A DNA stretch of 32,000 nt from an uncultured bacterium (GTDB taxonomy: Bacteria; Auribacterota; JACPWU01): contig CAZXEQ010000006.1 of NCBI GenBank assembly GCA_964640155.1, positions 145,164-177,163 on the forward strand, read 5' to 3'. The position numbers were made by a program, and so were the translations under genes. Below the pieces are notes generated by a model, which was given only the letters and a program-made list of their open reading frames with translations, had not been told where the DNA came from and did not search any database. The number at the start of each line of letters is the position of its first letter. Position 1 is the first letter of the stretch. Shown here one piece after another: positions 8,534 to 24,374 of this stretch.

Positions 8534-11500
8534 ATGGGCTTACCCTCTTATTCAGTTAGAAAACCTATTGGCTTAATCATGTTGTTCACGGCACTGACCC
8601 TTTTTGGTTTAGTGGCCTTTACAAAACTCCCCGTAGAACTCATGCCTAATGCTAGCTATGACAAAATCACTATTCTGGTCAACATTCGTGGTGGAATGCC
8701 CCCTGTAGATGTTGAATTTCTAGTCACACGCCCTATTGAAGAAGCCCTTAGCACCGTCACCCATCTGGAAAGTATCGGATCTACCTCCAAAGAAGGAAAA
8801 TCGACTGTTGTTTTGAGTTTTCCTCCAGGAACCGACATGGACTTTTCATCTTTGGAAGTCAGAGAGAAATTTGCAAAAGTTAAAAACAAGCTTCCTCATG
8901 AATGTGAAAAACCTGTGATTGCTAAATATGAAGAATCTGACACCCCTGTGATGATCTTAGCCATTGCAAGTTTCGTGCACACGACTGAACAAATACGCGC
9001 CCTGGTGGAAGATCGCATTAAAGAGAGATTGATGCGAATTCGAGGTGTAGCAAATATCGAAATCGGTGGGGGCAAAGAAAGAAAAATCCTCGTTGAACTT
9101 GACCAAAAACGTATTCAAGCCCTTAACCTATCTGTTCAAAGAGTTGTTTCTGCCATATCTAAAAACAATCTCAATCTCATGGTAGGTAATGTTGCAAAAG
9201 ATGAATATAAAATCCTTTTAAGAACCATTGGACAACTCCCCTCTCTTGATGCCATCAAAGACATTCCTGTTATGAAAACAGACCAGCTTTCAATTGTTCG
9301 TTTAAAAGATATCTCTGAAGTAAAAGATTCTTTTTTAGAAGCAACCACTTATTCAAGAACCAATTCTAGAGAAGTTGTTTCCCTGTATGTTCAGAAAGAA
9401 TCCACAGCAAATACAGTAAAAGTTTGTGAAAGCCTTCAAAAAGAAATGGATGATGTAGCTAAATCTATTGGGAAAGATGTTCGTATTATTACAGTGAGTA
9501 ACCAAGCCATCTTTATTGAGAGCGCCATTGAAACCGTCATGAAATCCCTGCGAGATGGAGGAATTCTCGCAATCATCGTACTTTTTTTCTTTTTAAGAGA
9601 TTTTCGATCTACCATAGCCATTGTACTTTCAATGCCCCTTTCAATTGTCATTACATTTGCTCTCATGTGGTTCAGTGGTTTAACAGTCAATGTTCAAACC
9701 TTGAGTGGACTTGCACTCGGAATCGGAATGTTAACTGATAACGCGGTGGTTGTTTTAGAAAATATTGATATTAGACGTTCTAAAGGGCAAAATCCCATTG
9801 ATGCAGCTATTCAAGGAAGTCAGCAAGTGTTATTGGCCCTTGTCTCTTCAACAGCGACAACAGTCATTGTCTTTCTCCCCATCGTATTCATTAATAAACA
9901 AATTCAAATTCTCTATAAAGGACTTGCATTGACCGTTACTTATTCACTCGTAGCTTCTCTTTTAACCGCTTTATCAATTGTTCCTCTGATGGTTTCTAGA
10001 GGAACCTATAAAGCCAAAGTTAAGAAAAAAGCAAGAGCATCCATTCGAAAAGTGAAGAACCTTTATCGTAAAAGCCTTTTTTATGCAGTTCGATATCGTT
10101 ATATCTGCGTAGGAGTGGTATTTTTTATCATGTACATGGCTTTTCTATATATTGGAGGTTTAGAAAAAGAACTCCTTGCCTCTTCAGAAGAAGGAAAATT
10201 TACTGTCTTTGTCGAACTTCCATCAGGCGCTAAACTTGAACTCTCAGATAAAGTTGTGAAACAAGTTGAAGAAATTCTTTCAAAAATGCCTGAAATTCAG
10301 ACCGTTTCTTCCCGTGTAGAAGGATGGTCTTCTAAAGTTTATGTAGATCTTGTTCCCCCAGACAAACGTAATAAAAGCGTTGAAGACCTCATTGAAGAGC
10401 TACGTCCAAAATTTAAAAATTTAGGGGAAGCAGAAAGAGCCTTTGTCTACTTTTCAGAGTCTAGAGGGGGTGGATCCAAAGAGATTCTTGTGGATGTATA
10501 TGGTTTTGATTATGGAACTTTGAAAAAATTGGCTTCTGAAATTGCTGGGAAGATGGAGAAAATTCAAGGACTCACTGATCTTAAGTTGAGAATGAAAGAG
10601 GGTCGACCCGAATATGACATTGTGATTGATAAAAATAAGGCTGCTGTTCATGGCATGTCTACACGCGATATCGCCGATGAACTTCATGCTCAAACCCGTG
10701 GGCTTGAAGCCACGCGATTTCATTCTGAAGGAGGAAAAGAAGTTGAGACGATTGCACGCCTTCAGCAAAAAGATAGAGCTCACTTATCTGATATTCGAAA
10801 GCTTACACTGGTGACTCCACGTGGAGAACTATTAGAGCTCAAAGAGGTTGCTAATTTTAAAGAAGGCATTGCCCCAAGCGAGGTTTGGAGACTTAATAAA
10901 ACTCGAATGATTCAGGTCAGTTCTAATTTACACAACATCGGTATGGAAAAGGCTGCTGCTTTAATTAAAGAAGAATTGAAATCAATGAAATTTCCAAAGG
11001 ATTATTATTATCTTTTTGGTGGTGATTATGCCCGACAGGTTGAAAATCAGCAACAGCTAGCAGTTGCTCTTTTAATCACCCTTGTGCTGATTTATATGCT
11101 ATTGGCTTCTCTCTTTGAGTCTTATTTTCAGCCCTTTATCATCATGAGTGCTATTCCCCTCTGTTCTATCGGTGTTGCTATCGCTCTAGGGATCACGCAT
11201 ACCACCATCAGCATGGGAGTAATGATTGGAACCATCATGCTTGGAGGAATTGTGGTCAATCACTCTATTGTTATGGTGGACCATATCAACTTTGTTGTAA
11301 AACATGAAAATTATGGAAGATTTAGAGCCGTGATTAGCTCAGGAATCGATCGCTTGCGTCCCATCATGATGACAGCAGCAACAACAGTATTGGGGCTTCT
11401 TCCAACGGCATGGGATAAAAGTCAGGGAGCAAGTCTTTGGAGCCCTCTTGCCATTACCGTCATTGGAGGTATTATCAGCTCAACGGTTATGACACTTTAT

Positions 11501-11614
11501 ATTGTTCCTAGTATTTTTACCATCTTTGGGGATTTCGGAAAAATATTCCGCAAAGCCCTAAGCATGCTTTTTCCAAACAAAGTAGTAGAAACACCTCTTA
11601 CCAATAATACTTAA
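8534..11614 (+). CDS. RND efflux permease (AcrB/AcrD/AcrF superfamily), paralogue 2
   Basis: 1026 aa with the same architecture as paralogue 1 (SYSVRKPIGLIMLF...LPVELMPNASYDKITI). TM4 motif is GMLTDNAVVVLEN. Confidence 0.95.
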   Translation: MGLPSYSVRKPIGLIMLFTALTLFGLVAFTKLPVELMPNASYDKITILVNIRGGMPPVDVEFLVTRPIEEALSTVTHLESIGSTSKEGKSTVVLSFPPGTDMDFSSLEVREKFAKVKNKLPHECEKPVIAKYEESDTPVMILAIASFVHTTEQIRALVEDRIKERLMRIRGVANIEIGGGKERKILVELDQKRIQALNLSVQRVVSAISKNNLNLMVGNVAKDEYKILLRTIGQLPSLDAIKDIPVMKTDQLSIVRLKDISEVKDSFLEATTYSRTNSREVVSLYVQKESTANTVKVCESLQKEMDDVAKSIGKDVRIITVSNQAIFIESAIETVMKSLRDGGILAIIVLFFFLRDFRSTIAIVLSMPLSIVITFALMWFSGLTVNVQTLSGLALGIGMLTDNAVVVLENIDIRRSKGQNPIDAAIQGSQQVLLALVSSTATTVIVFLPIVFINKQIQILYKGLALTVTYSLVASLLTALSIVPLMVSRGTYKAKVKKKARASIRKVKNLYRKSLFYAVRYRYICVGVVFFIMYMAFLYIGGLEKELLASSEEGKFTVFVELPSGAKLELSDKVVKQVEEILSKMPEIQTVSSRVEGWSSKVYVDLVPPDKRNKSVEDLIEELRPKFKNLGEAERAFVYFSESRGGGSKEILVDVYGFDYGTLKKLASEIAGKMEKIQGLTDLKLRMKEGRPEYDIVIDKNKAAVHGMSTRDIADELHAQTRGLEATRFHSEGGKEVETIARLQQKDRAHLSDIRKLTLVTPRGELLELKEVANFKEGIAPSEVWRLNKTRMIQVSSNLHNIGMEKAAALIKEELKSMKFPKDYYYLFGGDYARQVENQQQLAVALLITLVLIYMLLASLFESYFQPFIIMSAIPLCSIGVAIALGITHTTISMGVMIGTIMLGGIVVNHSIVMVDHINFVVKHENYGRFRAVISSGIDRLRPIMMTAATTVLGLLPTAWDKSQGASLWSPLAITVIGGIISSTVMTLYIVPSIFTIFGDFGKIFRKALSMLFPNKVVETPLTNNT

Positions 11615-11739
11615 ACTATATTCCTCTTTCGCTACATCAAAATCTATTTGCTTGTACCTCTTTCAGTCTGGGATATATAAAAATTTAACCACGATGAACA
11701 TTGTGAGAATGGACAAATGTGAGGGGAATTGATTTACTT

Positions 11740-13038
11740 CTAAAGCGCGTTTTTAGGTATGATCTTTACTTCTTCTGAAGCATTTCTCATCAATCGAATT
11801 TCTTCAAACTCATCAAAGCGATACTTTTCTTGAAGAACATTTTGAATCACTTCACGGGTTAGATCATAAAGCTGAGGAGGAAAACCTTCTTTTGAATGAG
11901 TCATTTCAAACTGGAATTGAAAGAAAGTCAATTTTTCATTCTTTTCGTCTTTCAAATAATGTCCTTTAATCGATTCAACTTTAAAGTCAAAAGGTTGAAT
12001 ATTATTTCTCTTATCCTCTGCAAGTTTTTCTAAATCATTCACCTTTCTCACAATTCTCAAGGCAATTTGCCCTGCAATAAAATCAGGAAAGGTCACTTCA
12101 TCTAAATGAAAATCATCTTCCACCCACTGATCAACATCCTGAAAACGAAGATAAGATTCTGGAAATGCTCTCTTGCGAAATTTTCCATTTTCATCACGGT
12201 AATCCAAAGGAATAACCTCTGTGATATTCGCATTAAAATTAGAGGCCCCCAACACAAACAAGTATTCATATACAAAACCTGAAGGAAATGTAATGTCTTC
12301 ACTTACAGTTCCCGGTTTCATTTCATACGTTTCCCTTACCTGACAATAAACAAGGGCTTTTTCATCGGGTAATGATTTCGTTTTGATATTAAGAATTTTA
12401 TAATGAACCTTGTCTTTGAGTCTCATTTCAAGCACCATTCTTAAAAAAGAGAGAGAAAAATCGCTTGAGTCAGTGCTTTTCTTAAGATAATCAGTCAATA
12501 AATGGTGAGTATTACCTGTGGAAAGATTCGAAAAAAAGTTAAGGATAGATCGCTTGGCTAATGGAGCAGGATTAAACCTAATTTTAAGCATCATCCGCTG
12601 CTCAAAATCATCTCTAGATATAGCAGAGGTCCAGAATTTTTTAATATCGAGGAGGTAACGGGTAGCAACGTATTCAACACCCGGAATAGCTTTATTAGCA
12701 ATCACAAGCGTATAAAACTGAATAGGAGCATCCGTTGAAAGAGAAACTCTAGCTAAACTGAGTAGAACATTTCCCATGCGTTCTGAATCAATGTCACTCA
12801 CACCACCAAAAAGCTTTTCAACCCTAACCCAAGCTCCTAGATTATTGCCAATAATTTTGCCTTGAACATCTTTGACTTTATATTCGTCCTGACAAACCTT
12901 CTTGATGGAATCGACAACTTTTTCTTTGGGGAAAGAGGCCTTACTACAACTGCTGGCAAGAAAAAGAAGAAAAAAGGATAAAAGATAGAGACATCTATAT
13001 CCCTCAAACCGTATAAAAGATTTTAGAAGCGAGCCCAC
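11740..13038 (-). CDS. hypothetical lipoprotein, translationally linked to the upstream FtsH-like gene
   Basis: 432 aa with a GTG start 6 nt after the FtsH-like stop. The hydrophobic N-terminus ends in a lipobox-like FLASSC. No recognisable domain. Confidence 0.75.
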   Translation of the reverse strand: MGSLLKSFIRFEGYRCLYLLSFFLLFLASSCSKASFPKEKVVDSIKKVCQDEYKVKDVQGKIIGNNLGAWVRVEKLFGGVSDIDSERMGNVLLSLARVSLSTDAPIQFYTLVIANKAIPGVEYVATRYLLDIKKFWTSAISRDDFEQRMMLKIRFNPAPLAKRSILNFFSNLSTGNTHHLLTDYLKKSTDSSDFSLSFLRMVLEMRLKDKVHYKILNIKTKSLPDEKALVYCQVRETYEMKPGTVSEDITFPSGFVYEYLFVLGASNFNANITEVIPLDYRDENGKFRKRAFPESYLRFQDVDQWVEDDFHLDEVTFPDFIAGQIALRIVRKVNDLEKLAEDKRNNIQPFDFKVESIKGHYLKDEKNEKLTFFQFQFEMTHSKEGFPPQLYDLTREVIQNVLQEKYRFDEFEEIRLMRNASEEVKIIPKNAL

Positions 13039-13044
13039 GATGCA

Positions 13045-14697
13045 TTACTCCATAGGATCAGGCCCTTGAATCAATGACGTCGTCTTAGGAGTAACTTGAT
13101 GATCATAGCCATACTCCTTAAAAATAGCTTCGATATCATCATATTCAAGTTCTGTTCTTTCCAAAAGCTCCTTAGCAAATCGTTCTAGAATATGCTTTTC
13201 TTTTCTTAAAAGATCTTCTGCTTCCTTTAGACAAGCATTCAATATTTCTCGGGTATCTGCATTTAAATCATCTTTAATCTTATCCGAAATTTCTGTTTCA
13301 GGAATAACCGTGTAATCACCCACATACTCCTGTTTTCCCATTCCAAATTTCCACACCATAGAATGTGCAACATGCATTGCATTTCTAAAGTCAGAAGCAA
13401 CTCCATTGGACGTAACACCATAGCGAATCTTTTCCCCTAAATAACCTCCTAAGGAAACTTTGATATCTGCCAACAATCCGTCTTTATTCTCCGTAAAATA
13501 TTCTTCTCTGGGCTGATGATAAACAACACCTAACGTGGATTGTCGTGTTGCAATAGAGGCTTTAAAGACATCATCTGTAGGATGAAGAATATAAAGAACA
13601 ATCAAGTGCCCTGCTTCGTGAAAAGCAACACGTTCCCTCTCATCCGAAGTCATTTCTCTTTTCAATTTAATACCCAAATCAATGCGTTCAATGGCCTCTG
13701 TTAAATCCTTGTAAGTCACCACCTCACGCTTATTTCGAGTCGCAATCAGAGCAGATTCTTTAATCACATTTTCAATTTCAGCAGGACTTTTTCCCACAGA
13801 TTTTCTTGCCAATCGACCAATATCAATCGTTGGGTCATGCTTCACTTTATCCATATAAAATCTAAAAAGTTTTTCTCTGCCCTTTAACCCTGGCTTTGAA
13901 ATAAAAATTTTCCGATCAAAACGCCCTGGTCTTAAAAGGGCTTCGTCCATAATCCCTTCAATAGCATTGGTCGCACCGATAACAACAACATTTCCTGCCC
14001 CTTCTAAGCCATCCAGTTCAATTAAGAGCTGGTTCAAGGTGCTATCTGTTTCCTGTCCTCCTCCAAATGAAAATGAACGTTTGCGACCGACGGCATCTAA
14101 TTCATCAATAAAAATAATGCAACCACCTTCAGCATAAGCAAGTTTTTTTGCTTTAGCAAAGAGCTTACGAACTCGACTGGCTCCCACTCCCACAAAAATT
14201 TCCACAAATTCGCTTCCTGAAATCGACAAAAATGGAAGACCGGCTTCTGTCGCAATAGCTTTGGCTAACAATGTTTTTCCACAACCTGGAGGTCCAATCA
14301 ACAACATTCCTCTTAAAATTTTTCCTCCGATTTGCTTTAGCTTCGTCCTATCTTTAATCAATTGAACCATTTCCCAAGCTTCGTCTTTTGCTTCATCGAT
14401 TCCGATGACTTGATCAAATTTAACATTCACAAAGTCTGCTTTAATCTTATTACGTCTCATTTGATTAAAACCACTCATCATCATATTCATATAAATATAG
14501 GCGAAAATAAAAGCCTGCAAGAAAACTGACAAGATCGTGATGGGAAGACCCGCCAAGGTTAGATTTCGATAAAAAGACTCCATCGTGTAAAGACCCCAAA
14601 CTGATAGAGCTAAAAGAATAAGAATGGTGGAAGTGATAATAATTGGGATTCGTGTGTTATAAACAAAAATCTTAAACTTTCTCCATAGTCTGTGCAT
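13045..14697 (-). CDS. ftsH: FtsH-like AAA+ ATPase / M41 zinc metalloprotease lacking a periplasmic domain
   Basis: 550 aa. Walker A GPPGCGKT, Walker [10 protein letters not shown], pore loop [11 protein letters not shown], second region of homology (SRH) [22 protein letters not shown], zinc motif HEAGH. The two N-terminal TM helices are separated by only about 11 residues. SD site AAGGAG. Confidence 0.9.
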
Positions 14698-14720
14698 ATA
14701 CGCTCCTTAGTCAATATACC

Positions 14721-14750
14721 ATGATAGCATGAGTTTTTGGGGTCCGTCAA
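14721..14750 (-). promoter_or_regulatory. putative extended -10 sigma70 promoter for the FtsH-like/lipoprotein unit
   Basis: On the minus strand: TTGACG (14745-14750), 18-nt spacer, TGcTATCAT (-10 hexamer at 14721-14726). The -35 element is embedded in the perfect palindrome GTCAAATTTGAC (14746-14757). Confidence 0.5.
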
Positions 14751-14821
14751 ATTTGACTATTTACTAAAACATATTTTCAGAGCAACTTATTCTCAAAATC
14801 TCTGTAAAGTCTGACAAAAAT

Positions 14822-14853
14822 AAGGGGGGCTTCTTTTTGTGAAAGCCCCCCTT
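14822..14853 (-). terminator. Rho-independent terminator after the 642-aa gene
   Basis: An 11-bp GC-rich stem (AAGGGGGGCTT / AAGCCCCCCTT) with a 10-nt loop. On the minus strand it is followed by TTATTTTTG. It lies 29 nt after the stop at 14882. Confidence 0.7.
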
Positions 14854-14881
14854 TCTAAAAAACTCAAAAGTGACCTAAATA

Positions 14882-16810
14882 CTATTTCAAATCTTCCATC
14901 TGAATATACAGTGTTTCTTCAATACCTGAATCTCGGTTGATTGCTTCCACAGCAACTGCTTTCATGACTTTCAAAGATTCCAAGAAAGGGATCACATTTT
15001 CTTCGAGCATAGCATCTGTTTGAGCTCCACTTGCCTTCTGAAATTTCTGAGCCCATTTTGTGATTTGAATCACCAAATCCAATGTTCTCTCCATATTAAC
15101 AAAACCTAGTTGATTCACCTTGGCATTGAAATTAGGTGTAGCATTCTTAAAACTTTGACTTTGAGCAACAGCTGATTTTCCACCTTTTACAACATCAATT
15201 AAGCTTTTTACTGTATCTTTGTTGATACCAATGATAAGGAAACCATTGGTGACAGCATAAGACGGATTCAATGTTTGAAAAGGTAATTGAACTTCTAAAT
15301 AGTTAATTTCTACCCCTTGATACTCCTCTTTACCAAGACTCACTTGTGCCAAGGAAGGAGTCACAGGTGCAGCAGTAACTGTTTGTGTATCTGCGGTAGA
15401 CTCTTCTGTAACAGCTGCTGAACCATCCGCATTAACAGATGAAGTCTCCCCTGACGAAGCACTCACGCCTGATGGAGCTGATTTTTTAACCACATAATCC
15501 ATCAAAGTTTTCATCACACTGGAAATCTTTGCTTCATCTTTCACCTTCGCTAAAATGGCAACATGAGGGAAAGGGAAAAGTCCCGACATGTCTACATTTG
15601 TAATTGCAAAACAGACTTCATTATCTAAAGAAGCCAAAATATCGTTTTTAATACTAATATTTGCTTCTTTCTCAAAATTAGAGACTCCCTCTTGAATAAT
15701 GGCTGCTTGATTTGCACCTTGAGTTTGCATACTCCCTTGCCATGCGTCCCAAATCTTTGAAAGCTCTAAGCCATTTGATGCAGTTAAAATCAAACTGCCA
15801 TCGGGAAGAAAACTTAAAGACTCTGTTTCTTTGGGTCCTGATTCCCATCCCGTCATTGCAGGAGATGGAGCAGCAGCACTATTTTTCATAAAGAAAAGCT
15901 TTACCAATAAACCATTATCAAAACCCACAGCACCCGAGATAGATTGAATGGATCCTAATGTCTGCTCAATACCTGCTGTAAGGTTTTCCGATGCACCTTC
16001 AGGCTTTGGCAATGCTTTAATCAAGTCTACAATTTTTGCCATATTGACATAAATTAAACCTCTTAAGTCTCCCCTAATCTTTAGATTTCCAATGGCCTTT
16101 TTATATTCCTCATTAGAACCAAGAGATTCCGAAGATTTTTTTGAAGCTAGATCGATCACCTTGCGAAGACCAGAATCATCCAATCCTACTTCTAATGCAA
16201 AAATATTTCCCACAATTGAATAATTGAATTCAGGACCTGCCACTTTTGGATTTTTAACACGTGTAATTTTTTGATCATTGTATTCAACAGTTTCTAAAGT
16301 CACTTCCCCTTTTACCTTTTCAACCAAAGCAGCAATTTTTCCATTCACATCTGCCTTAGAACTGGTTTGAGATAAAAGCAAAAGTTGAGGATTTGCAAGA
16401 CCTTCCTTACTTCCAATCAAAGCAATACTTAAATCCTGACCAAATAAACCAAAGAGATTTTCTTCAGAAAATTCGAAACCTAAATTATTCTTAAATTCTT
16501 CTTTAAAGGCATTGAGATCAAAAGGTACATTTCCCCAAATCTTTAAAGCAGATACTCTTTGCCAGAATTGAGAGTCTTTAATCAAAGACCATGTTGCTTG
16601 AGCATTTCGAGCAGAAAGGAAAAGAACAACGTCGCTGGGAACTATTTCAGCAATGGCAACCTCACCTTGTGAAGAAACAAGTTCACTGACCGAGCTTTCT
16701 ATTCCGGAAGAGGCGGCATGTCCTGGTTGGCTTTTCTTCATTTTAAGAGTTACAACAACACCTACAGCTACGAGTGCCGCTACAACAACCACAAGAATAC
16801 CCTTTTTCAT
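14882..16810 (-). CDS. hypothetical N-terminally membrane-anchored extracytoplasmic protein
   Basis: 642 aa. Single N-terminal TM or signal anchor (GILVVVVAALVAVGVVVTL). S/T/A-rich linker around SGETSSVNADGSAAVTEESTADTQTVTAAPVTP. Strong SD site AAGGAGG. The architecture is reminiscent of DUF3352-type proteins, but I cannot verify this. Confidence 0.8.
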   Translation of the reverse strand: MKKGILVVVVAALVAVGVVVTLKMKKSQPGHAASSGIESSVSELVSSQGEVAIAEIVPSDVVLFLSARNAQATWSLIKDSQFWQRVSALKIWGNVPFDLNAFKEEFKNNLGFEFSEENLFGLFGQDLSIALIGSKEGLANPQLLLLSQTSSKADVNGKIAALVEKVKGEVTLETVEYNDQKITRVKNPKVAGPEFNYSIVGNIFALEVGLDDSGLRKVIDLASKKSSESLGSNEEYKKAIGNLKIRGDLRGLIYVNMAKIVDLIKALPKPEGASENLTAGIEQTLGSIQSISGAVGFDNGLLVKLFFMKNSAAAPSPAMTGWESGPKETESLSFLPDGSLILTASNGLELSKIWDAWQGSMQTQGANQAAIIQEGVSNFEKEANISIKNDILASLDNEVCFAITNVDMSGLFPFPHVAILAKVKDEAKISSVMKTLMDYVVKKSAPSGVSASSGETSSVNADGSAAVTEESTADTQTVTAAPVTPSLAQVSLGKEEYQGVEINYLEVQLPFQTLNPSYAVTNGFLIIGINKDTVKSLIDVVKGGKSAVAQSQSFKNATPNFNAKVNQLGFVNMERTLDLVIQITKWAQKFQKASGAQTDAMLEENVIPFLESLKVMKAVAVEAINRDSGIEETLYIQMEDLK

Positions 16811-16873
16811 TCTCTTCCTCCTTGAGATTTAGACAATAAGAAATTATTAGGAATAAACCTATCCTTGAGAATA

Positions 16874-16903
16874 AGTATAACGACGAAAGGCATTGGAATG
16901 CAA
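16874..16903 (-). promoter_or_regulatory. putative sigma70 promoter for the 642-aa gene
   Basis: On the minus strand: TTGCAT (16898-16903), 18-nt spacer, TATACT (16874-16879). Confidence 0.45.
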
Positions 16904-16950
16904 GTAATTTCGAATGAAATGAATAGACGATTTAAGTCTGATGAAGATTA

Positions 16951-16992
16951 TAAAAAAAGCCAGCTAACGGATTATTCAACCCATTAGCTGGC
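16951..16992 (-). terminator. Rho-independent terminator after the 729-aa gene
   Basis: A 9-bp stem, GCCAGCTAA (16959-16967) paired with TTAGCTGGC (16984-16992). On the minus strand it is followed by a run of seven T (16952-16958). It lies 22 nt after the stop at 17014. Confidence 0.75.
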
Positions 16993-17013
16993 TTAAAAGA
17001 ATCAACAATAAGA

Positions 17014-19203
17014 TTATGCAAATCTCTGAACAGCGACCGCTGTCGCCATAGAATCTGAAATACCCTGAATCATTTGATCCGGATCAAGAATTTTTACAGC
17101 TGGAATAACCCCACCACTGATCGCCTGAGCTTCACGAGTTAACTCTGCATATTCATCATCCGATAATTCACTTCTCATTCCTTCAATAACAGCTAGATAA
17201 ATATCCCGAAGCTGTCCAAGCGCTTGTGCACGATCATCAATATAAAGAAGTTCTACTCCAGCTAAGAGAAGAGCAATAGAAACTCTTTGACCTCCTTGAG
17301 CTTGTTGAACTTTAAGTGTTTTTTGATCAGTACCAAAACTATCTACTCTATAAGTAGCTTCGTTAGCTTCAGACACATAGAATAAAACATTATTAGCTCT
17401 GGCTGCAAATTTCGCTTGAGCTTCTGTTCTACCTGCATTTACACGAGCTGTTACTTGCTCAAGTAAATTTTGGGCATTCGTGAAAGCAATAGCCACAGGG
17501 CTACCTTGCGTCGTTGCATCCATGGCTTGAAGAACATACTCTAATACAACCTGAGGCAATCGATTAGAAGCAACAACAAAGGTGATATCTCCTTTTTGAG
17601 CTCTAATTTGATTCATTTTTGCAACAATGGATGGCCCCACATTTGCAACAAGTTTAGACAATTTTAAGGCTCCATCTTCTTTTAAAGTTCCATCCGCATT
17701 TAAAATCTCTGCATAATTAATATCGCCCACCAAGGCATCCACATCAATCACTGCCACACGAGGATCAGCTGGAATGGCTTGTCCTGCATTTACCTGTGCC
17801 ACCAATAGCGCGTTTTCAAGTTTTGTATCTCTAGCATTTCTTCTTTCAGCCGTTGCAGCTGCACGAATCAGAAAAGCAACAAGATTGGCTCGAGTTGCTT
17901 CAACTCCTTTTTTAACAGTTCCCTCTTTTAAAAGGGCTGCATTCAGGAAAAGTTTCCCTGCATTTCCCACCAAAGCAATTATGCCGTCCGCTAAAGCTCC
18001 TGTTACTACTTGTTCACCGATTTTCACGGTACTGCCCGTAACAGTAACTTCAACACCTGTTTCTTCGATAGTTACCGCTGCTAAGACTCTTGCAATTTCT
18101 TCTCGCTGGGCTTGAGTTAAACGATAATAAGATCTTAGAGCAAGAGCATCTGCTAAATCTTGAGCATTTGAAAATTTAAATCCGCTATTAGGATTTTCAT
18201 GAAGGCTTAAACGATAAAGTAAAGCAGCATCATGAAGCGAATTTTCTCTACCAACCACACTTGGAGCAACCAATTCGGTTTGAATTGCAGTAATAATTTG
18301 ATGAGGTAAATCAGCGCCTCCTTCTAAAGCAACACCCGCCTGAGTTAAACCAGCAACTAATGCTTCTTCGATATCTTCATGTGTCATATGATGTGCAATA
18401 TCATCAACCCGTGTCGCATTTGCTTCTAAAAATTTTTGTTCATAATAAGCAACGGATCTTCCGTCTGCTGTCACAAATGCCACCAAAAACTGATTTTCAG
18501 GATCATTCATCACTTGCGTCTCATCAAGCAAGCGATTTACAACTGCATCCAAATTAGCATAGTTTTTTGTTACAGCTTGAATTACTGCATCAATTTTATC
18601 AGGAGTAACACCTTTAGCTTCTAAAGCTTTTCTTAAACGAGCAGTATCAATTGAGTCAGTCAAAGCTTTCTTTAAAGCAGTTTTAATAGCCTCTAATTGG
18701 CCTTGGCCTTCTGTTCCTCTTTTATTAAAAGAATTTCTCAAAGAAACGGGTTGAGTTGTTTGAGCTAAAGCGGCTACGCGAGCAATAGAAGCAGGATCAT
18801 GTTCTCCAACAAAAGCGCCTCCTGCAGGAGGTGCTGGTGGGGCCGCATTGGGACCTACACCAACGGATACTCCGCCGCCAGGTAATAGACTGGCAAGAAC
18901 GGATACAGTTTGACCATTATTAGCCACATCAAAACGAACTGCATCATCTTCAGCCCGGACATTTGCTACAGTCGCCTCCGGAACAGATTCACGCACAACT
19001 GCTTCTACTGCAGCAACAGCGGTGGCATCGTCAGGACGCTCTTTGAGGGCACGCACTGCCTGTGCTCCCCTCTGTTCAAGACTATCTTTCAATGCAGGCG
19101 ACAACTTCTCCGCCACCAAAGTCGCAGCAAAAGTCTGCGCAACAAAAGCGAGCATACTCATGCCTAAAAGTATTTTACTTGTTAAAAGTTTACTGAGCTT
19201 CAT
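17014..19203 (-). CDS. hypothetical secreted Ala/Val/Gly-rich protein with no recognisable family
   Basis: 729 aa. Signal peptide LLGMSMLAFVAQTFA|A. Pro/Ala/Gly linker GPNAAPPAPPAGGA. The ATG overlaps the upstream stop (ATGA at 19200-19203). GC content is visibly higher than in the neighbouring genes. Confidence 0.85.
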   Translation of the reverse strand: MKLSKLLTSKILLGMSMLAFVAQTFAATLVAEKLSPALKDSLEQRGAQAVRALKERPDDATAVAAVEAVVRESVPEATVANVRAEDDAVRFDVANNGQTVSVLASLLPGGGVSVGVGPNAAPPAPPAGGAFVGEHDPASIARVAALAQTTQPVSLRNSFNKRGTEGQGQLEAIKTALKKALTDSIDTARLRKALEAKGVTPDKIDAVIQAVTKNYANLDAVVNRLLDETQVMNDPENQFLVAFVTADGRSVAYYEQKFLEANATRVDDIAHHMTHEDIEEALVAGLTQAGVALEGGADLPHQIITAIQTELVAPSVVGRENSLHDAALLYRLSLHENPNSGFKFSNAQDLADALALRSYYRLTQAQREEIARVLAAVTIEETGVEVTVTGSTVKIGEQVVTGALADGIIALVGNAGKLFLNAALLKEGTVKKGVEATRANLVAFLIRAAATAERRNARDTKLENALLVAQVNAGQAIPADPRVAVIDVDALVGDINYAEILNADGTLKEDGALKLSKLVANVGPSIVAKMNQIRAQKGDITFVVASNRLPQVVLEYVLQAMDATTQGSPVAIAFTNAQNLLEQVTARVNAGRTEAQAKFAARANNVLFYVSEANEATYRVDSFGTDQKTLKVQQAQGGQRVSIALLLAGVELLYIDDRAQALGQLRDIYLAVIEGMRSELSDDEYAELTREAQAISGGVIPAVKILDPDQMIQGISDSMATAVAVQRFA

Positions 19204-20942
19204 TTTGTAATTCCTCCTCTTTCCTGGGGAATAGTCCCCTGATTATTAAAATAAGTTTTAAGTCCTTCAAAAATGTTTTTGGAGCCCATCATCACGCGTA
19301 CATACGGACTGTCGATGACTTCTGCTTGAATCGAAGGTGTAATCACACAGTACCCCATCCCCTTTTCTTTCAAGAAGCTCTTAATGGCTTCCGTATGAAA
19401 TCCTCCGGCAATCAAAATCACCACATCTACCTTTTCTTTTTCCATTGCTGTTAAAAGGTTCGTGGTTAAAGACTCATTTCTTTGATTGGCCAAAGTGTAA
19501 AAATCTTCAGCGTAAGGGGTTAAATTTTTAAAGAATTTTTCATCCAAAATATCAAAACCACTTCGGGCTGGAATATTATGTTTCTTAGAATTTTCTTTTA
19601 GAAAATTCATTACACCCTCTAATGTCATTTCTGTTTTACGAGCCAAATAATCAGCTAATTCTTGCTGATTGAGTTCAGCCAAATAGAGTTTTTTGAGGGT
19701 TTTTAAATTCTTTGAAAATTTTAAAAGAGTTTTTTCTTCTTGAGTTTTAGCCAAACTCTCAGAAACTCTGTCCTCTGACTCATCTAATTCCCTAAAAAGG
19801 GCTTTGCTTTGAATATGTCCAAAAACCTTTTCATATTCGATGAATTTGAGAAGTTCGGCATGAGGAAAAGTTTTATTTTTAAGTTCGACTGCATAATGCT
19901 TCTGAATAAGTCCTTCTAAATATAAGTAGTAGTCTAAGGCTGAAACACGTCCCAATCGATATCCGAGTGTCTTAGAAAGAAATTCGTTGAGAGCTTTTTG
20001 ATTTTCAGCGGAGACTGCTTTATCATCTGTTGAGCCCGAAATCTTAGAGGAAATTTGGGTTAAAAAATCGGTTCTTTCTTTTTCGACTTTCTCAAAATTA
20101 ATATTCTTTTCTAAAGCTTCTTTTTGGATGAAAAGGGTTAGATTGGGATACTTCTCTTTAAAATCTTTTGCTTCTACCGATCCTATCACTTTTCCATAAA
20201 TCTTAAGTACTTCCAAAGCATAAGCGCTAAAAGTGATCTCATTTTTCTCAGAACGATGGATTAAATCTCTGAATTTCTTTAATTCTTCAGAATAAATCTT
20301 TTGCTCTAAATCCTGAAGTTGATGTTCGAAAAGCTGAAAAATTAAAGTGAGACGTTCTCGATGAGGCGCCAAGGAACGAAAGGCTTGTAAATTTTTTTCA
20401 TAAACATCTTTGTCCTCAATACCATAAATTGTAATTGGAGCCCCTAAAACAGCGAGGGCATATTCAACCCCCATCGCATCTCCATTCTTCATCAAATCAT
20501 TAAAAACCTTTTCGCGAACAGGAACTGGGGTGTGCTCAACCATTAAATTGGCCGGATCAAATTTACCCCAATAGCCTTCGATACATACAAGGGAGATTTG
20601 ATAGCGTTTGGTTAAAGATTCTAAAATTTTGGCAATGTTCATCTGTGCTTCATAAATACAATGGGCGTCTCTTATATGAATGACCAATTTAGGAGATACG
20701 GAAGATTTTGAGGAGGATTTAGAAGAATCTTGTTTGTCTTTTGAGTTTGTAAGAGCTTCTGATCCACCTGTTAAGGTTGGAAGCCAAATTTCATCAATAT
20801 TACCATAACTTTCAGGAATAGTGAGTTTGGATAGCTTTTCTGCATCTAAACGGCCAGGTTTCTTAGCCGCTTCACTGAAAGAAACAAAGCAAGATAATGA
20901 AATAATGCTTAAAATGATCCATTTTTGTTTAGCCATAGTCAT
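19200..20942 (-). CDS. hypothetical secreted protein with Tiki/ChaN/erythromycin-esterase-like His motifs
   Basis: The ORF is open to 20984, but that first ATG lies inside the predicted promoter spacer. The ATG at 20942 has a GGGGAAGGA SD site and yields a clean signal peptide, MTMAKQKWIILSIISLSCFVSFSEA|A. Motifs: HIRDAHCIYEAQ, LVCIEGY and ILIAGGFHTEAI. Confidence 0.8.
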   Translation of the reverse strand: MTMAKQKWIILSIISLSCFVSFSEAAKKPGRLDAEKLSKLTIPESYGNIDEIWLPTLTGGSEALTNSKDKQDSSKSSSKSSVSPKLVIHIRDAHCIYEAQMNIAKILESLTKRYQISLVCIEGYWGKFDPANLMVEHTPVPVREKVFNDLMKNGDAMGVEYALAVLGAPITIYGIEDKDVYEKNLQAFRSLAPHRERLTLIFQLFEHQLQDLEQKIYSEELKKFRDLIHRSEKNEITFSAYALEVLKIYGKVIGSVEAKDFKEKYPNLTLFIQKEALEKNINFEKVEKERTDFLTQISSKISGSTDDKAVSAENQKALNEFLSKTLGYRLGRVSALDYYLYLEGLIQKHYAVELKNKTFPHAELLKFIEYEKVFGHIQSKALFRELDESEDRVSESLAKTQEEKTLLKFSKNLKTLKKLYLAELNQQELADYLARKTEMTLEGVMNFLKENSKKHNIPARSGFDILDEKFFKNLTPYAEDFYTLANQRNESLTTNLLTAMEKEKVDVVILIAGGFHTEAIKSFLKEKGMGYCVITPSIQAEVIDSPYVRVMMGSKNIFEGLKTYFNNQGTIPQERGGITK

Positions 20943-20972
20943 GGAATCCTTCCCCTTTTGCTTGGTAGAAAG

Positions 20973-21001
20973 TTTATACCACATAAAATGCCCTGCGTCA
21001 A
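20973..21001 (-). promoter_or_regulatory. putative extended -10 sigma70 promoter for the two-gene secreted-protein unit
   Basis: On the minus strand: TTGACG (20996-21001), 17-nt spacer, TGgTATAAA (-10 hexamer at 20973-20978). Confidence 0.5.
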
Positions 21002-21092
21002 GTTAGAGACAAAAATAGATATAACTTGTTTATTATGAAATAGTTAAGGAAATACAAAATTGTACTGTTCGAATTGCTTAGAAACTTTATAT

Positions 21093-21284
21093 TCACTTAG
21101 AAAGTAATTTAACAAGAAGGTATATGGCGGCAACCCCTAAAAGTGCAAAACCAATTTTACGAAGTTTTTTCAATCTTAAAATATCCTTTTCAGGAATACC
21201 CGTCGGTTTAGTAAATATTTTAGGATAAAGTAGAATGAGAAGGCCACTCACGAGAGGGATTGCAATATCGACATAACCTGTCAT
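21093..21284 (-). CDS. small two-TM membrane protein
   Basis: 63 aa with two hydrophobic helices flanking a basic loop (LRLKKLRK). SD site AGAGGTGA lies 4-5 nt before the ATG. Starts 21 nt after the aspS stop. Confidence 0.6.
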   Translation of the reverse strand: MTGYVDIAIPLVSGLLILLYPKIFTKPTGIPEKDILRLKKLRKIGFALLGVAAIYLLVKLLSK

Positions 21285-21305
21285 CTTTCACCTCTTTTGT
21301 CTAAA

Positions 21306-23066
21306 TCATGAAAATTTTAGATTCAACTCTTTTAACTGTTTCGGCGCTACTTCCGAAGGAGATGCGGTAAGTAGACAAGTCGCACTTTGAGTTTTGGGGA
21401 ATGCAATCGTATCTCGAATAGACTTAAGACCTAAAAGAATCATAGTTAAGCGGTCTAATCCGATAGCGATTCCTCCATGAGGAGGAGCTCCATGTTGGAA
21501 GGCATCTAAAAGAAATCCAAATTTCTTTTGAGCATTTTCATTATCAATGCCCAGAAGATTAAACATTTTGCTCTGTAATTCCAGAGAATGAATTCGAATA
21601 CTGCCTCCCCCTACTTCTGTTCCATTAATAACCAAATCATATGCCTTGGCCTTGGCCTTGAGAGGGTCTGTGTCCAAAAGAGTGAAATCTTCTTTTTTAG
21701 GACTGGTGAAAGGATGATGCACGGCTACAAATTTTTTCTCTTCTTCACTGTATTCTAAAAGAGGAAAATCTACCACCCAAAGTAAAGCAAACTCTGTTTT
21801 GGGTTTTATATTCAAAACTTCTGCAAGCTTCAGTCTGAGTTGTCCAAGTGATTGATGAACGACTGATTCTTGATCTGCTACAAAAAGAAGCAAGTCTCCA
21901 ACTTCAGCTTTCATCTGAGAACGAATTTCATCAAGTTGAGCTGCATCAAAAAATTTGGTAATAGCAGATTTTAATTCACCATTGGCCTCTACCTTCATCC
22001 AAGCCAGACCTTTAGCACCTAAGGTTTTTACAAATTCAGTTAAAGATTCAATATCCTTTAATGAAAGATGCGCTCCATTTTTTGCATTGATTCCTTTCAC
22101 ACGACCTTTTTTCTCAACCGTGTCTCGAAAGACTTTAAAATTCACTCGGGCAGAGAAATCCGTCAAATCCACCAATTCCAAATCATATCTCAAATCAGGC
22201 TTATCGCAGCCATAACGTTCCATGGCGTCTTGATAAGGCATTCTTGTAAAGGGAGTTTTCAAATCTTTCCCTAAAATAACTTTAAATACTTGAGACATGA
22301 GCCCTTCGATTAAGCGATAAACATCTTCTTCATCGATAAAAGACATTTCAATATCGATTTGTGTATGTTCAGGTTGGCGATCGGCGCGTAAATCTTCATC
22401 ACGAAAACATTTTACAATTTGAAAATAACGATCAAATCCGGAGACCATCAAAAGTTGTTTGAAAAGCTGAGGAGATTGTGGAAGCGCATAAAACTTTCCA
22501 GGATAAATACGGCTTGGAACAAGATAGTCTCTTGCCCCCTCAGGGGTACTTTTAGTCAGCATGGGAGTTTCAACTTCCATAAAGGAAAGTTTATCTAAAT
22601 AGTCTCTAGCGATTTTGGTAATGCGATATCGGGACAAAAGATTTTTCTGCATGCTGGGCCGTCTTAAATCTAAGTATCGAAATTTAAGGCGTAAGTCTTC
22701 CGATACATCTACATTATCTTCGACAGGAAAAGGTGGAGTTTCGGAAGAACTCAAGATTTCTAATTCATTCGCAATGATTTCAATTTCTCCAGTAGGTAAT
22801 TTAGAATTAACAGTTCCTGCCGGGCGTTCTCCTACTTCCCCTTTCACGCAAATCACATATTCGGGACGAATCTCTTTAGCTATTTTGTGAGCCTGTGCAT
22901 GTAACTCAGGATTAAAGACAACTTGTGTAAGTCCATACCGATCTCTTAAATCGACAAAAACCAAGCCCCCATGATCTCGACGGGTTCCCACCCATCCACA
23001 AAGAGTCACTTTTTGTCCTAAATGAGATTTATTCAAATCGCTACATGTATGGGTTCGCATGGACAT
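21306..23066 (-). CDS. aspS: aspartate--tRNA ligase
   Basis: 586 aa. N-terminal OB fold (GWVGTRRDHGGLVFVDLRD). Class II motif 2 FRDEDLRADRQPEHTQID, then GGGSIRIH, then motif 3 GIAIGLDRL. Confidence 0.97.
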   Translation of the reverse strand: MSMRTHTCSDLNKSHLGQKVTLCGWVGTRRDHGGLVFVDLRDRYGLTQVVFNPELHAQAHKIAKEIRPEYVICVKGEVGERPAGTVNSKLPTGEIEIIANELEILSSSETPPFPVEDNVDVSEDLRLKFRYLDLRRPSMQKNLLSRYRITKIARDYLDKLSFMEVETPMLTKSTPEGARDYLVPSRIYPGKFYALPQSPQLFKQLLMVSGFDRYFQIVKCFRDEDLRADRQPEHTQIDIEMSFIDEEDVYRLIEGLMSQVFKVILGKDLKTPFTRMPYQDAMERYGCDKPDLRYDLELVDLTDFSARVNFKVFRDTVEKKGRVKGINAKNGAHLSLKDIESLTEFVKTLGAKGLAWMKVEANGELKSAITKFFDAAQLDEIRSQMKAEVGDLLLFVADQESVVHQSLGQLRLKLAEVLNIKPKTEFALLWVVDFPLLEYSEEEKKFVAVHHPFTSPKKEDFTLLDTDPLKAKAKAYDLVINGTEVGGGSIRIHSLELQSKMFNLLGIDNENAQKKFGFLLDAFQHGAPPHGGIAIGLDRLTMILLGLKSIRDTIAFPKTQSATCLLTASPSEVAPKQLKELNLKFS

Positions 23067-23114
23067 ATTTAAATTCCTGTTTAAGATTTCTAGTTTTTAT
23101 TTTTAAATAATTTT

Positions 23115-24374
23115 TCAGATCTTTTGTTGAATGACTTCTAAAATTTTCTGTTCACTCAGTTCTTCTTCAGTGCTTTCTTTCATATTCTTTAACTTCACCA
23201 CTCCTCGGTTTAATTCATCATCTCCTCGAAGTAATACGTAAGGAACTTCTAATTTATTGGCCCTTCGAAGTTGTGATTTTAAACTTTTGGAATCATAATC
23301 CATTTCACAAGCAATGCCCAGTGCTCTTAATTTATTTCTCAACGCAAAATTTGCTTCAAAAGCTTTTTCACCCAATGCAGCAAGAAAAAAAAGTGCAGAT
23401 TTAGGGCGCCCTTCTTGAGGGAAATGATCTCCCAAAGCCAAGAGGATTCGTTCCATCCCCATGGCAAAACCCACAGCTCCCAAAGCAGGTCCGCCCATGG
23501 ATTTTACAAGTCCATCATAACGTCCTCCTGCCGCAACCGCATCCTGAGCGCCTAAAGAAGCATGTGTCACTTCAAAAATGGTTCGCGTGTAATAATCAAG
23601 TCCTCGGACCATTTTTGGGGCAAGCTCAAAAGAAATTTGAAGTTGATTTAAAAAGTGCTTCACTTGGGAAAAATGATTTTGACAAGGTTCACATAAAACA
23701 TCCGGAAGCAGAGGAATGAGATCTAAGAGCTTTTGACATTTCTCATTTTTACAATCGAGAACACGTAAAACATTTTTTTCAAAACGTCTTTGGCAATCTT
23801 CACATAGCTCAGAAACTTTCTCTTTCAAAGATTCACGCAAAACTTGTGTATATTTTGACTTACAATCAGAACAACCCACACTGTTGATTTTAAAGCGAGC
23901 ACCTGTTAAGCCAATCGAATCGAGTAATTTTTTTAAAAGATCTAAAACTTCTGCATCTACTGCTGGATGAGAACTTCCCAACACTTCAACTCCAATCTGA
24001 TGAAATTGACGCAAACGCCCTGCTTGAGGTCGCTCATGTCGGAACATAGGCCCGATGTAAAAAAACTTATGAAAACGATCTTCTTGATCCATTTGATGTT
24101 CTAAAAACGCACGCACCACGGGAGCCGTTGCTTCAGGCCGTAAAGTCAGACCTAAGCCCTTTTCTTCAGGGATGGTGTACATTTGTTTTTCAACAATGTC
24201 AGAAGTTTCACCCACAGAGCGGATAAAGAGTTCTGTGCGCTCAAATATCGGGGTTCTTAATTCTTCAAAACCAAATTGCGTAAAAATGCTTCGAGACTTA
24301 TTTTCTAAAAACTGCCATTTCCAAATTTCGCAAGGCAAAATATCATTGGTGCCTCTGACCGCCTGCATTCTCAT
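23115..24374 (-). CDS. hisS: histidine--tRNA ligase
   Basis: 419 aa. Motifs VRGTNDILP, FRHERPQAGRLRQFHQ, AAGGRYDGL and GFAMGMERI, plus a C-terminal anticodon-binding domain. Confidence 0.97.
   Translation of the reverse strand: MRMQAVRGTNDILPCEIWKWQFLENKSRSIFTQFGFEELRTPIFERTELFIRSVGETSDIVEKQMYTIPEEKGLGLTLRPEATAPVVRAFLEHQMDQEDRFHKFFYIGPMFRHERPQAGRLRQFHQIGVEVLGSSHPAVDAEVLDLLKKLLDSIGLTGARFKINSVGCSDCKSKYTQVLRESLKEKVSELCEDCQRRFEKNVLRVLDCKNEKCQKLLDLIPLLPDVLCEPCQNHFSQVKHFLNQLQISFELAPKMVRGLDYYTRTIFEVTHASLGAQDAVAAGGRYDGLVKSMGGPALGAVGFAMGMERILLALGDHFPQEGRPKSALFFLAALGEKAFEANFALRNKLRALGIACEMDYDSKSLKSQLRRANKLEVPYVLLRGDDELNRGVVKLKNMKESTEEELSEQKILEVIQQKI

Follow-up and report, generated by a model that had tools for sequence, protein, structure and literature searches.

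A predicted bicistronic operon of an uncultured Auribacterota bacterium couples a putative TIKI/TraB-like hydrolase to a variable, putatively exported partner

The window analyzed here, a 32,000-nucleotide stretch of contig CAZXEQ010000006.1 from an uncultured bacterium of the Auribacterota lineage, is chromosomal, has a G+C content of ~37%, and carries on its minus strand two adjoining genes, designated A and B, that are the subject of this report. An initial annotation, made from the sequence alone, had described the two as a self-contained unit encoding secreted proteins of unknown function; the corresponding open reading frames (ORFs) were confirmed at 19200–20984 and 17014–19203. The nearest public genome is a metagenome-assembled genome (MAG) of Candidatus Auribacterota (JAYRIK01; loci L003 and L009), referred to below as the sister genome, while L001 is a contig identical to the window's own locus. 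The features of the A-B region are as follows:

20973–21001, minus strand: predicted sigma-70-type promoter with an extended -10 element (TTGACG at 21001–20996, 17 nucleotides, TG-G-TATAAA; -10 hexamer at 20978–20973)
19200–20942, minus strand (580-residue form): gene A, 580 residues (alternatively 578 residues from 20936), putatively exported TIKI/TraB-like hydrolase
19200–19225, minus strand: candidate translational coupling element, consisting of a Shine-Dalgarno sequence AGGAGGA in the last codons of A and an ATGA overlap
17014–19203, minus strand: gene B, 729 residues, Ala-rich, putatively exported, member of a rare family
16950–16994, minus strand: intrinsic terminator of the A-B operon, a 17-bp stem (16994–16957) followed by a T-run
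16900–19125, minus strand: segment divergent from the sister genome, with sharp bounds, taking in the terminator region and all of B after its first ~26 codons

The promoter noticed initially at 20973–21001 is present. It was omitted by a consensus promoter scanner because the scanner demands T at position 6 of the -10 hexamer, where this site has A, and promoter-like sites in the region are in any case no commoner than chance (31 found, 29.9 expected from shuffled sequence), so that the pattern match alone is weak. Much stronger is the comparative support, which is good: a block CTTGAC-17-TGTGnTAyA occurs upstream of A in two other genomes as well, L002 and L008, and its intergenic conservation is maintained at considerable divergence of A (64% and 35% identity, respectively). 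The ATG at 20984 that opens the longer ORF lies, as had been remarked, inside this conserved spacer and extended -10 block, and the equivalent position reads GTG in L002; the true start of A must therefore lie downstream. The predicted start is the one previously favored, at 20942, or possibly 20936, two codons further on, in line with the N-terminus of the L002 homologue.

At the junction of the two genes an ATGA at 19200–19203 contains both the stop of A and the start of B, in agreement with the earlier description, and the combination of AGGAGGA and ATGA is kept in L002, L003, L006, L008, L090/L091 and L092, that is, in every locus that carries B. In L008 the arrangement persists even though A is 35% and B 28% identical to the window proteins and the downstream neighbor is a glycoside hydrolase gene, not the gene C found in the window. 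The junction (19200–19208, minus strand) reads A-AAA-TGA, with the A-run present in five loci including L002, L003, L006 and L092, and a -1 slip at this point would give a fused A-B protein resembling fused homologues found elsewhere. Programmed -1 frameshifting by slippage of tRNA-Lys on the A-run was nevertheless rejected as the means of producing such a fusion: L008 has no A-run at its junction (ACATGA), and termination-reinitiation coupling is therefore the simpler reading. The junction is probably a case of such ordinary coupling.

The stem-plus-T-run terminator reported at 16951–16992 is likewise present and folds strongly, with a free energy of -28.9 kcal/mol and a z-score of -7.4 (none of 200 shuffles folds as well); the sister genome has a comparable hairpin behind B. 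The description of the pair as self-contained thus holds for its boundaries, which are real, with the qualification that gene C also trails B in most genomic contexts, separated from it by the terminator and preceded by its own upstream region. From these predicted elements A-B is taken to be an autonomous bicistronic operon.

Both products carry one N-terminal signal-like segment. Signal-peptide features were judged by inspection of the sequences together with a Kyte-Doolittle scan, the features sought being a positive n-region, an h-region of 7–17 hydrophobic residues, small residues at -3 and -1, and no further membrane segment; A and B display all of them. In A, K5 and K7 precede an h-region WIILSIISLSCFVSF with putative cleavage at SEA/A, and in B, K2, K5 and K10 precede an h-region ILLGMSMLAFVAQTF with putative cleavage at TFA/A. 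No further segment of either protein reaches the Kyte-Doolittle threshold, in keeping with the absence of other transmembrane segments remarked on before. Of the cleavable Sec-type signal peptides originally claimed, the signal-like segments are thus seen, and export itself is a prediction: A and B would cross the cytoplasmic membrane via the Sec pathway.

Gene A has no match in Pfam, NCBIfam or PDB at normal thresholds, and profile searches with A and with B, which the initial annotation had proposed as a check, find no characterized family at curated thresholds. An indexed protein search recovers only a dozen relatives of A; a pattern scan of GTDB representative genomes finds far more, namely 288 stretches, mostly from Candidatus Omnitrophota, with the remainder from Auribacterota, Elusimicrobia, Planctomycetia and a few unclassified MAGs. 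The two His motifs that had been pointed out in A, IHIRDAHC and GGFHTE, are real, and they represent the most conserved positions of the family. An alignment of 12 homologues shows D92-x-H94, Y-E-A-Q100, E122-G123, R488 and G513-G-F-H516 to be invariant; among 97 A domains drawn from retrieved loci, of which 91–95 cover a given column, D92, H94, Q100, E122, R488, G513, G514 and H516 are unchanged in every domain that covers them. These residues recall the 2His/2Glu catalytic set of the TIKI superfamily, in which Glu-x-His lies on one strand, Glu on the next, and His after a later strand (PMC6254334). The sequence of A contains the same succession of acid-x-His, Glu ~28 residues later, and GxxH, with Asp instead of Glu as the first acid, and the spacing of 28 between His and Glu (H94/E122) is identical in RRSP (H3902/E3930) and Bcr135 (H85/E113).

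Sub-threshold profile matches point in the same direction. When the helical middle of the protein is left out, the core of three of seven A sequences matches PF04187 (ChaN, "Tiki superfamily") at E ~0.05, and other helix-trimmed cores match DUF5694 and DUF5682, all of these matches falling on the R-N...G-x-x-H stretch; one core sequence matches TIGR00261 (TraB) at E=3.2e-4, also below threshold, and comparison of A with E. coli YbaP by hhalign again aligns the RN...GxxH stretch, weakly (E=0.51). An AlphaFold2 model of A (predicted local distance difference test score (pLDDT) 79.9) shows a beta-alpha-beta core, in which short strands and helices take turns, and an all-helical insert of ~320 residues (178–502) that interrupts the core between a strand that ends at 175 and a strand that starts at 507. 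A Foldseek search with this model, another check suggested at the outset, gives no significant PDB match; its weak list includes, at E ~1, EreC, a superfamily member with a helical lid and the sole enzyme family in that list with a comparable layout. Searches of PDB profiles with both full-length and core-only A profiles return nothing relevant. Solved members of the superfamily, such as ChaN (2G5G), Bcr135 (3B55), EreC (6XCQ) and RRSP, have an alpha/beta fold around a central parallel beta-sheet. Taken together, motifs, spacing and predicted topology mark A as a very probable, if remote, member of the TIKI/TraB/ChaN/Ere superfamily with its catalytic residues intact, and as a putative hydrolase; it constitutes a new, unannotated family inside a known superfamily. 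The label "unknown function" is thereby modified for A, and one half of the pair would fall within a known kind.

The relatives of A in other phyla reveal an architecture of which the A-B operon appears to be one instance. Among the 80 best loci of the 288 relatives, A occurs in two forms: as a stand-alone gene of 500–570 codons followed on the same strand by a gene of 600–2,600 codons, often at a spacing of -26 to +60 nucleotides, or at the N-terminal end of one continuous ORF whose length ranges from 1,000 to more than 3,200 codons and in many cases exceeds the retrieved DNA. Several genomes hold multiple copies of the module. The proteins encoded downstream of A modules begin with a hydrophobic, signal-like segment, and five of seven partner or fused proteins that were scanned contain enzyme domains of central metabolism: phosphoglycerate kinase PGK (L084, L085), FBP aldolase/phosphatase FBPase_3 (L014, L018), and a DeoC-type aldolase (L013). 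In this survey the A module appears to form a constant head, fused to or coupled with a long, variable partner, in a modular design shared by Auribacterota, Omnitrophota, Elusimicrobia and Planctomycetia; far from being rare, it heads a large family of big, putatively exported proteins in Omnitrophota and allied phyla.

The five partners with enzyme domains, all from Omnitrophota and 790–1,310 residues long, start with a hydrophobic segment of strongly positive-inside character and also contain complete PGK, FBP aldolase/phosphatase or DeoC aldolase domains. Head-plus-partner units are often arranged two or three in a row at the same locus; L074 has three A-family genes in 11 kb, and further tandem arrays are seen in L020, L041, L048, L059, L061, L070 and L083, which suggests local duplication and diversification of the units.

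Two short terminal features recur in proteins attached to or downstream of A modules. The last residue is Ala, Ile, Leu or Val in 45 of 47 such proteins, compared with 67 of 198 other ORFs of the same loci (Fisher p = 6e-16), and L-[RS]-[PTK] occurs shortly after the N-terminal hydrophobic segment in 16 of 26 partners, compared with 30 of 172 controls (p = 7e-6). B fits both, the window protein reading ...TFAATLVAEKLSPALK, and all B-family proteins end in Phe/Tyr-Ala.

In contrast to A, B belongs to a family of only seven proteins, as found by HMMER with a B profile in an exhaustive search over 1.84 billion cluster representatives; two metagenome pattern scans yield no more B alleles, and one scan of viral contigs yields no B relatives. 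Its description as a large Ala-rich orphan is borne out by an Ala content of 16.3% and by the lack of any characterized family at curated thresholds; family, structure and fold libraries likewise give no match to B save a weak one to SHOCT. Structure prediction produced a model (AlphaFold2, pLDDT 71.7) for which Foldseek finds no fold match, and in which several domains can be told apart: a small beta unit, a helical part and, towards the C-terminus, an alpha/beta region. Residues invariant in the family (G-E-H-D at 133–136, H-E-D-x-E at 275–279, H301, D325, R447, D489, D562 and R-V-S at 640–642) hint at a metal or catalytic site.

Wherever upstream DNA is available, B is preceded by A: this holds for eight of eight loci (the window, equivalent to L001, and L002, L003, L006, L008, L090/L091 and L092), and B is never found without A. 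Failure to find the pair adjacent in other genomes, which had been named at the outset as a result that would speak against the unit, is thus not what is observed. The partnership proposed on the basis of translational coupling agrees with the conservation of that coupling in all B loci; enzyme and substrate, or protease and cargo, may then describe the relation between the two, by inference. B is best regarded as a lineage-restricted orphan, the predicted Auribacterota-type variable partner of A. Two attempts to connect B with other partners gave negative results. A Rosetta-stone link was sought by hmmsearch with the B profile, which found no homology to B either in the C-terminal extensions that fused A proteins carry (P0006, P0013, P0014) or in Omnitrophota partners; a C-terminal alpha/beta module that seemed by eye to be shared found no support, hhalign comparison of the B C-terminal region with six clusters of partner C-termini giving probabilities of at most 1.5%. 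The six clusters themselves barely match each other in hhalign.

B is also the most diverged gene in all locus pairs compared. Between the window and the sister genome protein identity is 93% for A, 90% for C, 96% for an FtsH-like protein and 91% for gene E (the genes following B in the window), and 45% for B. The change is abrupt: in a sliding comparison of DNA identity with L003, values of 95–98% persist to ~19125, fall to ~50–60% across B, and return to 98% from ~16890. In the alignment of the window B with P0012 the first 30 columns are 90% identical and the final columns ~80%. The B genes of the two sister genomes thus behave like two old alleles swapped by recombination within conserved flanks, a pattern of divergence typical of surface-exposed or conflict-related proteins.

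The remaining genes of the window are arranged around the operon as follows:

14882–16810, minus strand: gene C, 642 residues, DUF3352-like, with an N-terminal membrane anchor
13045–14697, minus strand: gene for an FtsH-like AAA/M41 protease
11740–13038, minus strand: gene E, 432 residues
21093–21284, minus strand: 63-codon ORF between aspS and the promoter of gene A
minus strand: ftsW, murG, a murC-murB fusion, ddl, ftsQ, rnhB, hisS and aspS, then the 63-codon ORF, then genes A, B, C, FtsH-like and E
plus strand: genes for an outer-membrane efflux protein with TPR repeats, a membrane-fusion protein and two RND pumps

Of the seven genome contexts extending beyond B, six have gene C next, set off from B by a terminator and with a highly conserved upstream region of its own; C does not occur behind A-B in L008, nor in the Omnitrophota loci. 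The C homologue of L006 (52% identical) carries a match to DUF3352 (PF11832), and the window protein itself has no Pfam match at E<0.1. A strong terminator with a 12-bp G+C-rich stem follows gene C at 14853–14822, and C is a separate transcription unit, probably outside the core pair. The 100 nucleotides upstream of C (16790–16890, minus strand), which adjoin the divergent B segment, are 98% identical to L003, above the 77–93% of nearby coding DNA, and may have a regulatory role or serve as an anchor for recombination. Membership of C, the FtsH-like protease and E in the system was considered and dismissed: they are syntenic in close relatives only, and because they are absent from the A loci of other phyla they were left out.

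The FtsH-like AAA+/M41 protease has 550 residues, with two close N-terminal membrane segments and almost no periplasmic loop between them. Its score of 472.8 bits lies below the FtsH equivalog cut-off of 600, and it is therefore probably a specialized paralogue; its gene has a promoter-like site of its own with a TG extension (14750–14721). The product of gene E has a lipoprotein-like N-terminus (LFLASSC) and no family match, and is 91% identical in L003, where it also lies beside the FtsH-like gene. The 63-codon ORF encodes two hydrophobic segments behind a good ribosome-binding site, has no family match, and is missing at the same position in L002. MurC and MurB are joined in one protein of 801 residues (27302–29707, minus strand) with Mur ligase domains, FAD_binding_4 and MurB_C, a fusion also present in L002. 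In the RND system, the OEP-domain protein (1178–3754, plus strand; 858 residues) has Pfam TPR matches at residues 747–847, near its C-terminal end, and further TPR-like repeats, recognized by eye, at the opposite end; TolC-like proteins are not usually decorated in this way. An Rfam scan of 11000–23500 reveals no credible RNA family.

The reading that we moderately favor is that of an autonomous operon in which A, a putative hydrolase of TIKI type, acts on an exported, variable partner, B. Both proteins would cross the cytoplasmic membrane via Sec; A would then function at the outer face of that membrane as a hydrolase, most likely a peptidase. A peptidase is proposed by analogy with three superfamily members. 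Tiki shortens a mature secreted protein at its N-terminus, and TraB/PrgY handles peptides derived from signal sequences. RRSP, the third, is a site-specific endopeptidase (PMC6254334). The target of A would be its cognate partner, which it might, for example, trim or release in the N-terminal region just past the signal peptide, leaving B as the surface-exposed or secreted working part, whose rapid divergence would reflect contact with other cells, phages or variable substrates. A probably matures or handles B at the envelope in some way; that it does so by cleaving B is a tentative suggestion, on balance doubtful.

Several points weigh against this reading. Export of A and B is predicted from their N-termini only, and action of A on B is something that we infer. 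A reaches no TIKI-family model at a curated threshold and no solved structure significantly, so that its very probable place in the superfamily is argued from motifs, spacing and topology. Furthermore, some TIKI-fold proteins, namely ChaN and PMT, are not enzymes (PMC6254334). No domain common to B and the Omnitrophota partners or fused extensions was detected. The two terminal features shared by partners are short and were noticed post hoc, and in a search with a hidden Markov model trained on the C-terminal tails of 47 partners a B member comes no higher than 12th, at an E of 2.5 that is not significant; of the tail features, only the simple count of aliphatic last residues stands. Finally, glycolytic domains in supposedly exported partners are puzzling, since such enzymes need phosphorylated cytoplasmic substrates and their export is hard to rationalize, and the topology of the whole class is accordingly uncertain.

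The existence of non-enzyme TIKI-fold proteins (PMC6254334) gives some substance to an explanation in which A is a non-catalytic docking, chaperone or anchoring module, a ChaN-like ligand binder or an inactive fold like PMT C1/C2, whose helical domain holds B at the membrane or envelope with no bond cleaved. The conserved helical domain accounts for more than half of A, the short terminal features common to partners could act as docking peptides, and 1:1 translational coupling would suit a stoichiometric complex. Nevertheless, the full Asp/His/Glu/Arg/His set is invariant in ~95 homologues from several phyla, as is typical of a catalytic site, whereas PMT, the inactive example, is without the full residue set (PMC6254334); this explanation is considered unlikely, though it deserves to be kept in view. 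Less probable again is that the pair is an inter-microbial conflict module in which B is a diversifying effector or surface determinant and A protects the producer or controls its exposure to B. A proposal of this kind exists for two groups of the TIKI superfamily, TraB/PrgY, where it concerns an endogenous pheromone, and the erythromycin esterases. The allele-like divergence of B, with sharp breakpoints in an otherwise conserved locus, would fit such a module, and a role in peptide maturation or host resistance has been suggested for erythromycin-esterase homologues and Tiki/TraB peptidases in loci for ribosomally synthesized and post-translationally modified peptides (PMC8939145). On the other hand, PADLOC, Pfam and NCBIfam detect no toxin, immunity or defense component in A, B, C or E (the FtsH-like neighbor matches generic AAA models only), the window contains no mobile-element genes, the viral contigs scanned hold no relatives of B, and in other phyla the A head is carried by proteins that bear metabolic enzymes, unlike an effector-immunity pair.

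The adjacency of A and B might also be mere synteny inherited among close relatives, the two being independent, given that only a narrow group of related lineages contributes B loci, and that the DUF3352-like gene travels along with these. This we regard as very improbable: the 4-nucleotide overlap and the internal Shine-Dalgarno sequence are kept in L008 in spite of its low identities and different downstream neighbor, B never occurs apart from A, and in other phyla the A module is fused to the protein that otherwise lies downstream.

A wider generalization is offered as a speculation with little claim to probability: large and giant exported proteins across Omnitrophota, Auribacterota and allied candidate phyla, the unannotated N-termini of "Archaeovorins" included, would share the A-type TIKI module as their means of maturation or anchoring; the module would recognize its clients by an L-[RS]-P-like motif directly behind the signal peptide and by an aliphatic tail at the C-terminus; and A-B would be its smallest natural two-piece version, in which B, a hypervariable surface determinant, would serve in contacts with other cells or phages. 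Uncultured and often ultra-small, Omnitrophota and their relatives are possibly predatory or episymbiotic and are known for enormous exported proteins, and a conserved, probably catalytic TIKI-type head that is fused or coupled to big exported proteins suggests how these may be processed or displayed. The module may explain the unannotated N-termini of very large Omnitrophota proteins, and the 4-kb A-B operon, unlike a 100-kb gene, provides a clonable model for it. The A family itself, with ~288 members and no Pfam or NCBIfam model, is worth defining, as it extends the TIKI superfamily, whose bacterial members remain poorly understood; and the hypervariability of B marks a likely determinant of cell or phage interactions in a phylum without known ones.

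For B the only domain resemblance is to SHOCT (PF09851), to which four of the seven family members have weak, sub-threshold matches (best E=4.9e-4), probably falling on the motif G-E-I-S/T-x-E-E-Y-x-x-L-L near the C-terminus; a SHOCT domain would cover only ~25 residues of B and is silent on the function of the other ~700.

The giant proteins of Omnitrophota contain TIM, GPI, FBPase, PGM and FBA domains, and their predicted extracellular location has been found puzzling (bioRxiv 10.1101/2023.11.21.568195); their N-terminal regions are without identifiable domains (bioRxiv 10.1101/2023.11.21.568195; see also 10.64898/2026.06.07.730766). A search of the literature found no description of the A head-plus-partner architecture, nor of a TIKI-type module tied to these giants. 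The giants, termed "Archaeovorins" and "multi-enzyme metabolic" proteins, resemble the A-module proteins in occurring in the same phyla and in having a signal-like N-terminus and embedded glycolytic or gluconeogenic domains. B differs from them in its length of 729 residues, in having no enzyme domain recognizable by Pfam, and in showing no detectable homology; where giants exceed 10,000–30,000 residues and have many membrane segments and repeated domains, B has one N-terminal hydrophobic segment. Only the A head links the B operon with the Omnitrophota giants.

For A the closest known system is the TIKI/TraB/ChaN/Ere superfamily (Tiki1/2, TraB/PrgY, YbaP, GumN, ChaN, EreA-C/Bcr135 and RRSP), with which it shares acid-x-His on the first core strand, Glu at +28, Arg, and GxxH after a later strand, as well as the beta-alpha-beta core, which in A is predicted. 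The Ere enzymes, like A, have a lid-like helical region inserted in the core, and several superfamily members act on peptides at the outer face of a membrane. A stands apart from the known members in lacking a family model at threshold, in having Asp and not Glu as its first acid, in its ~320-residue helical insertion, which is conserved family-wide, and in serving as the N-terminal head of, or the coupled partner to, very long variable proteins.

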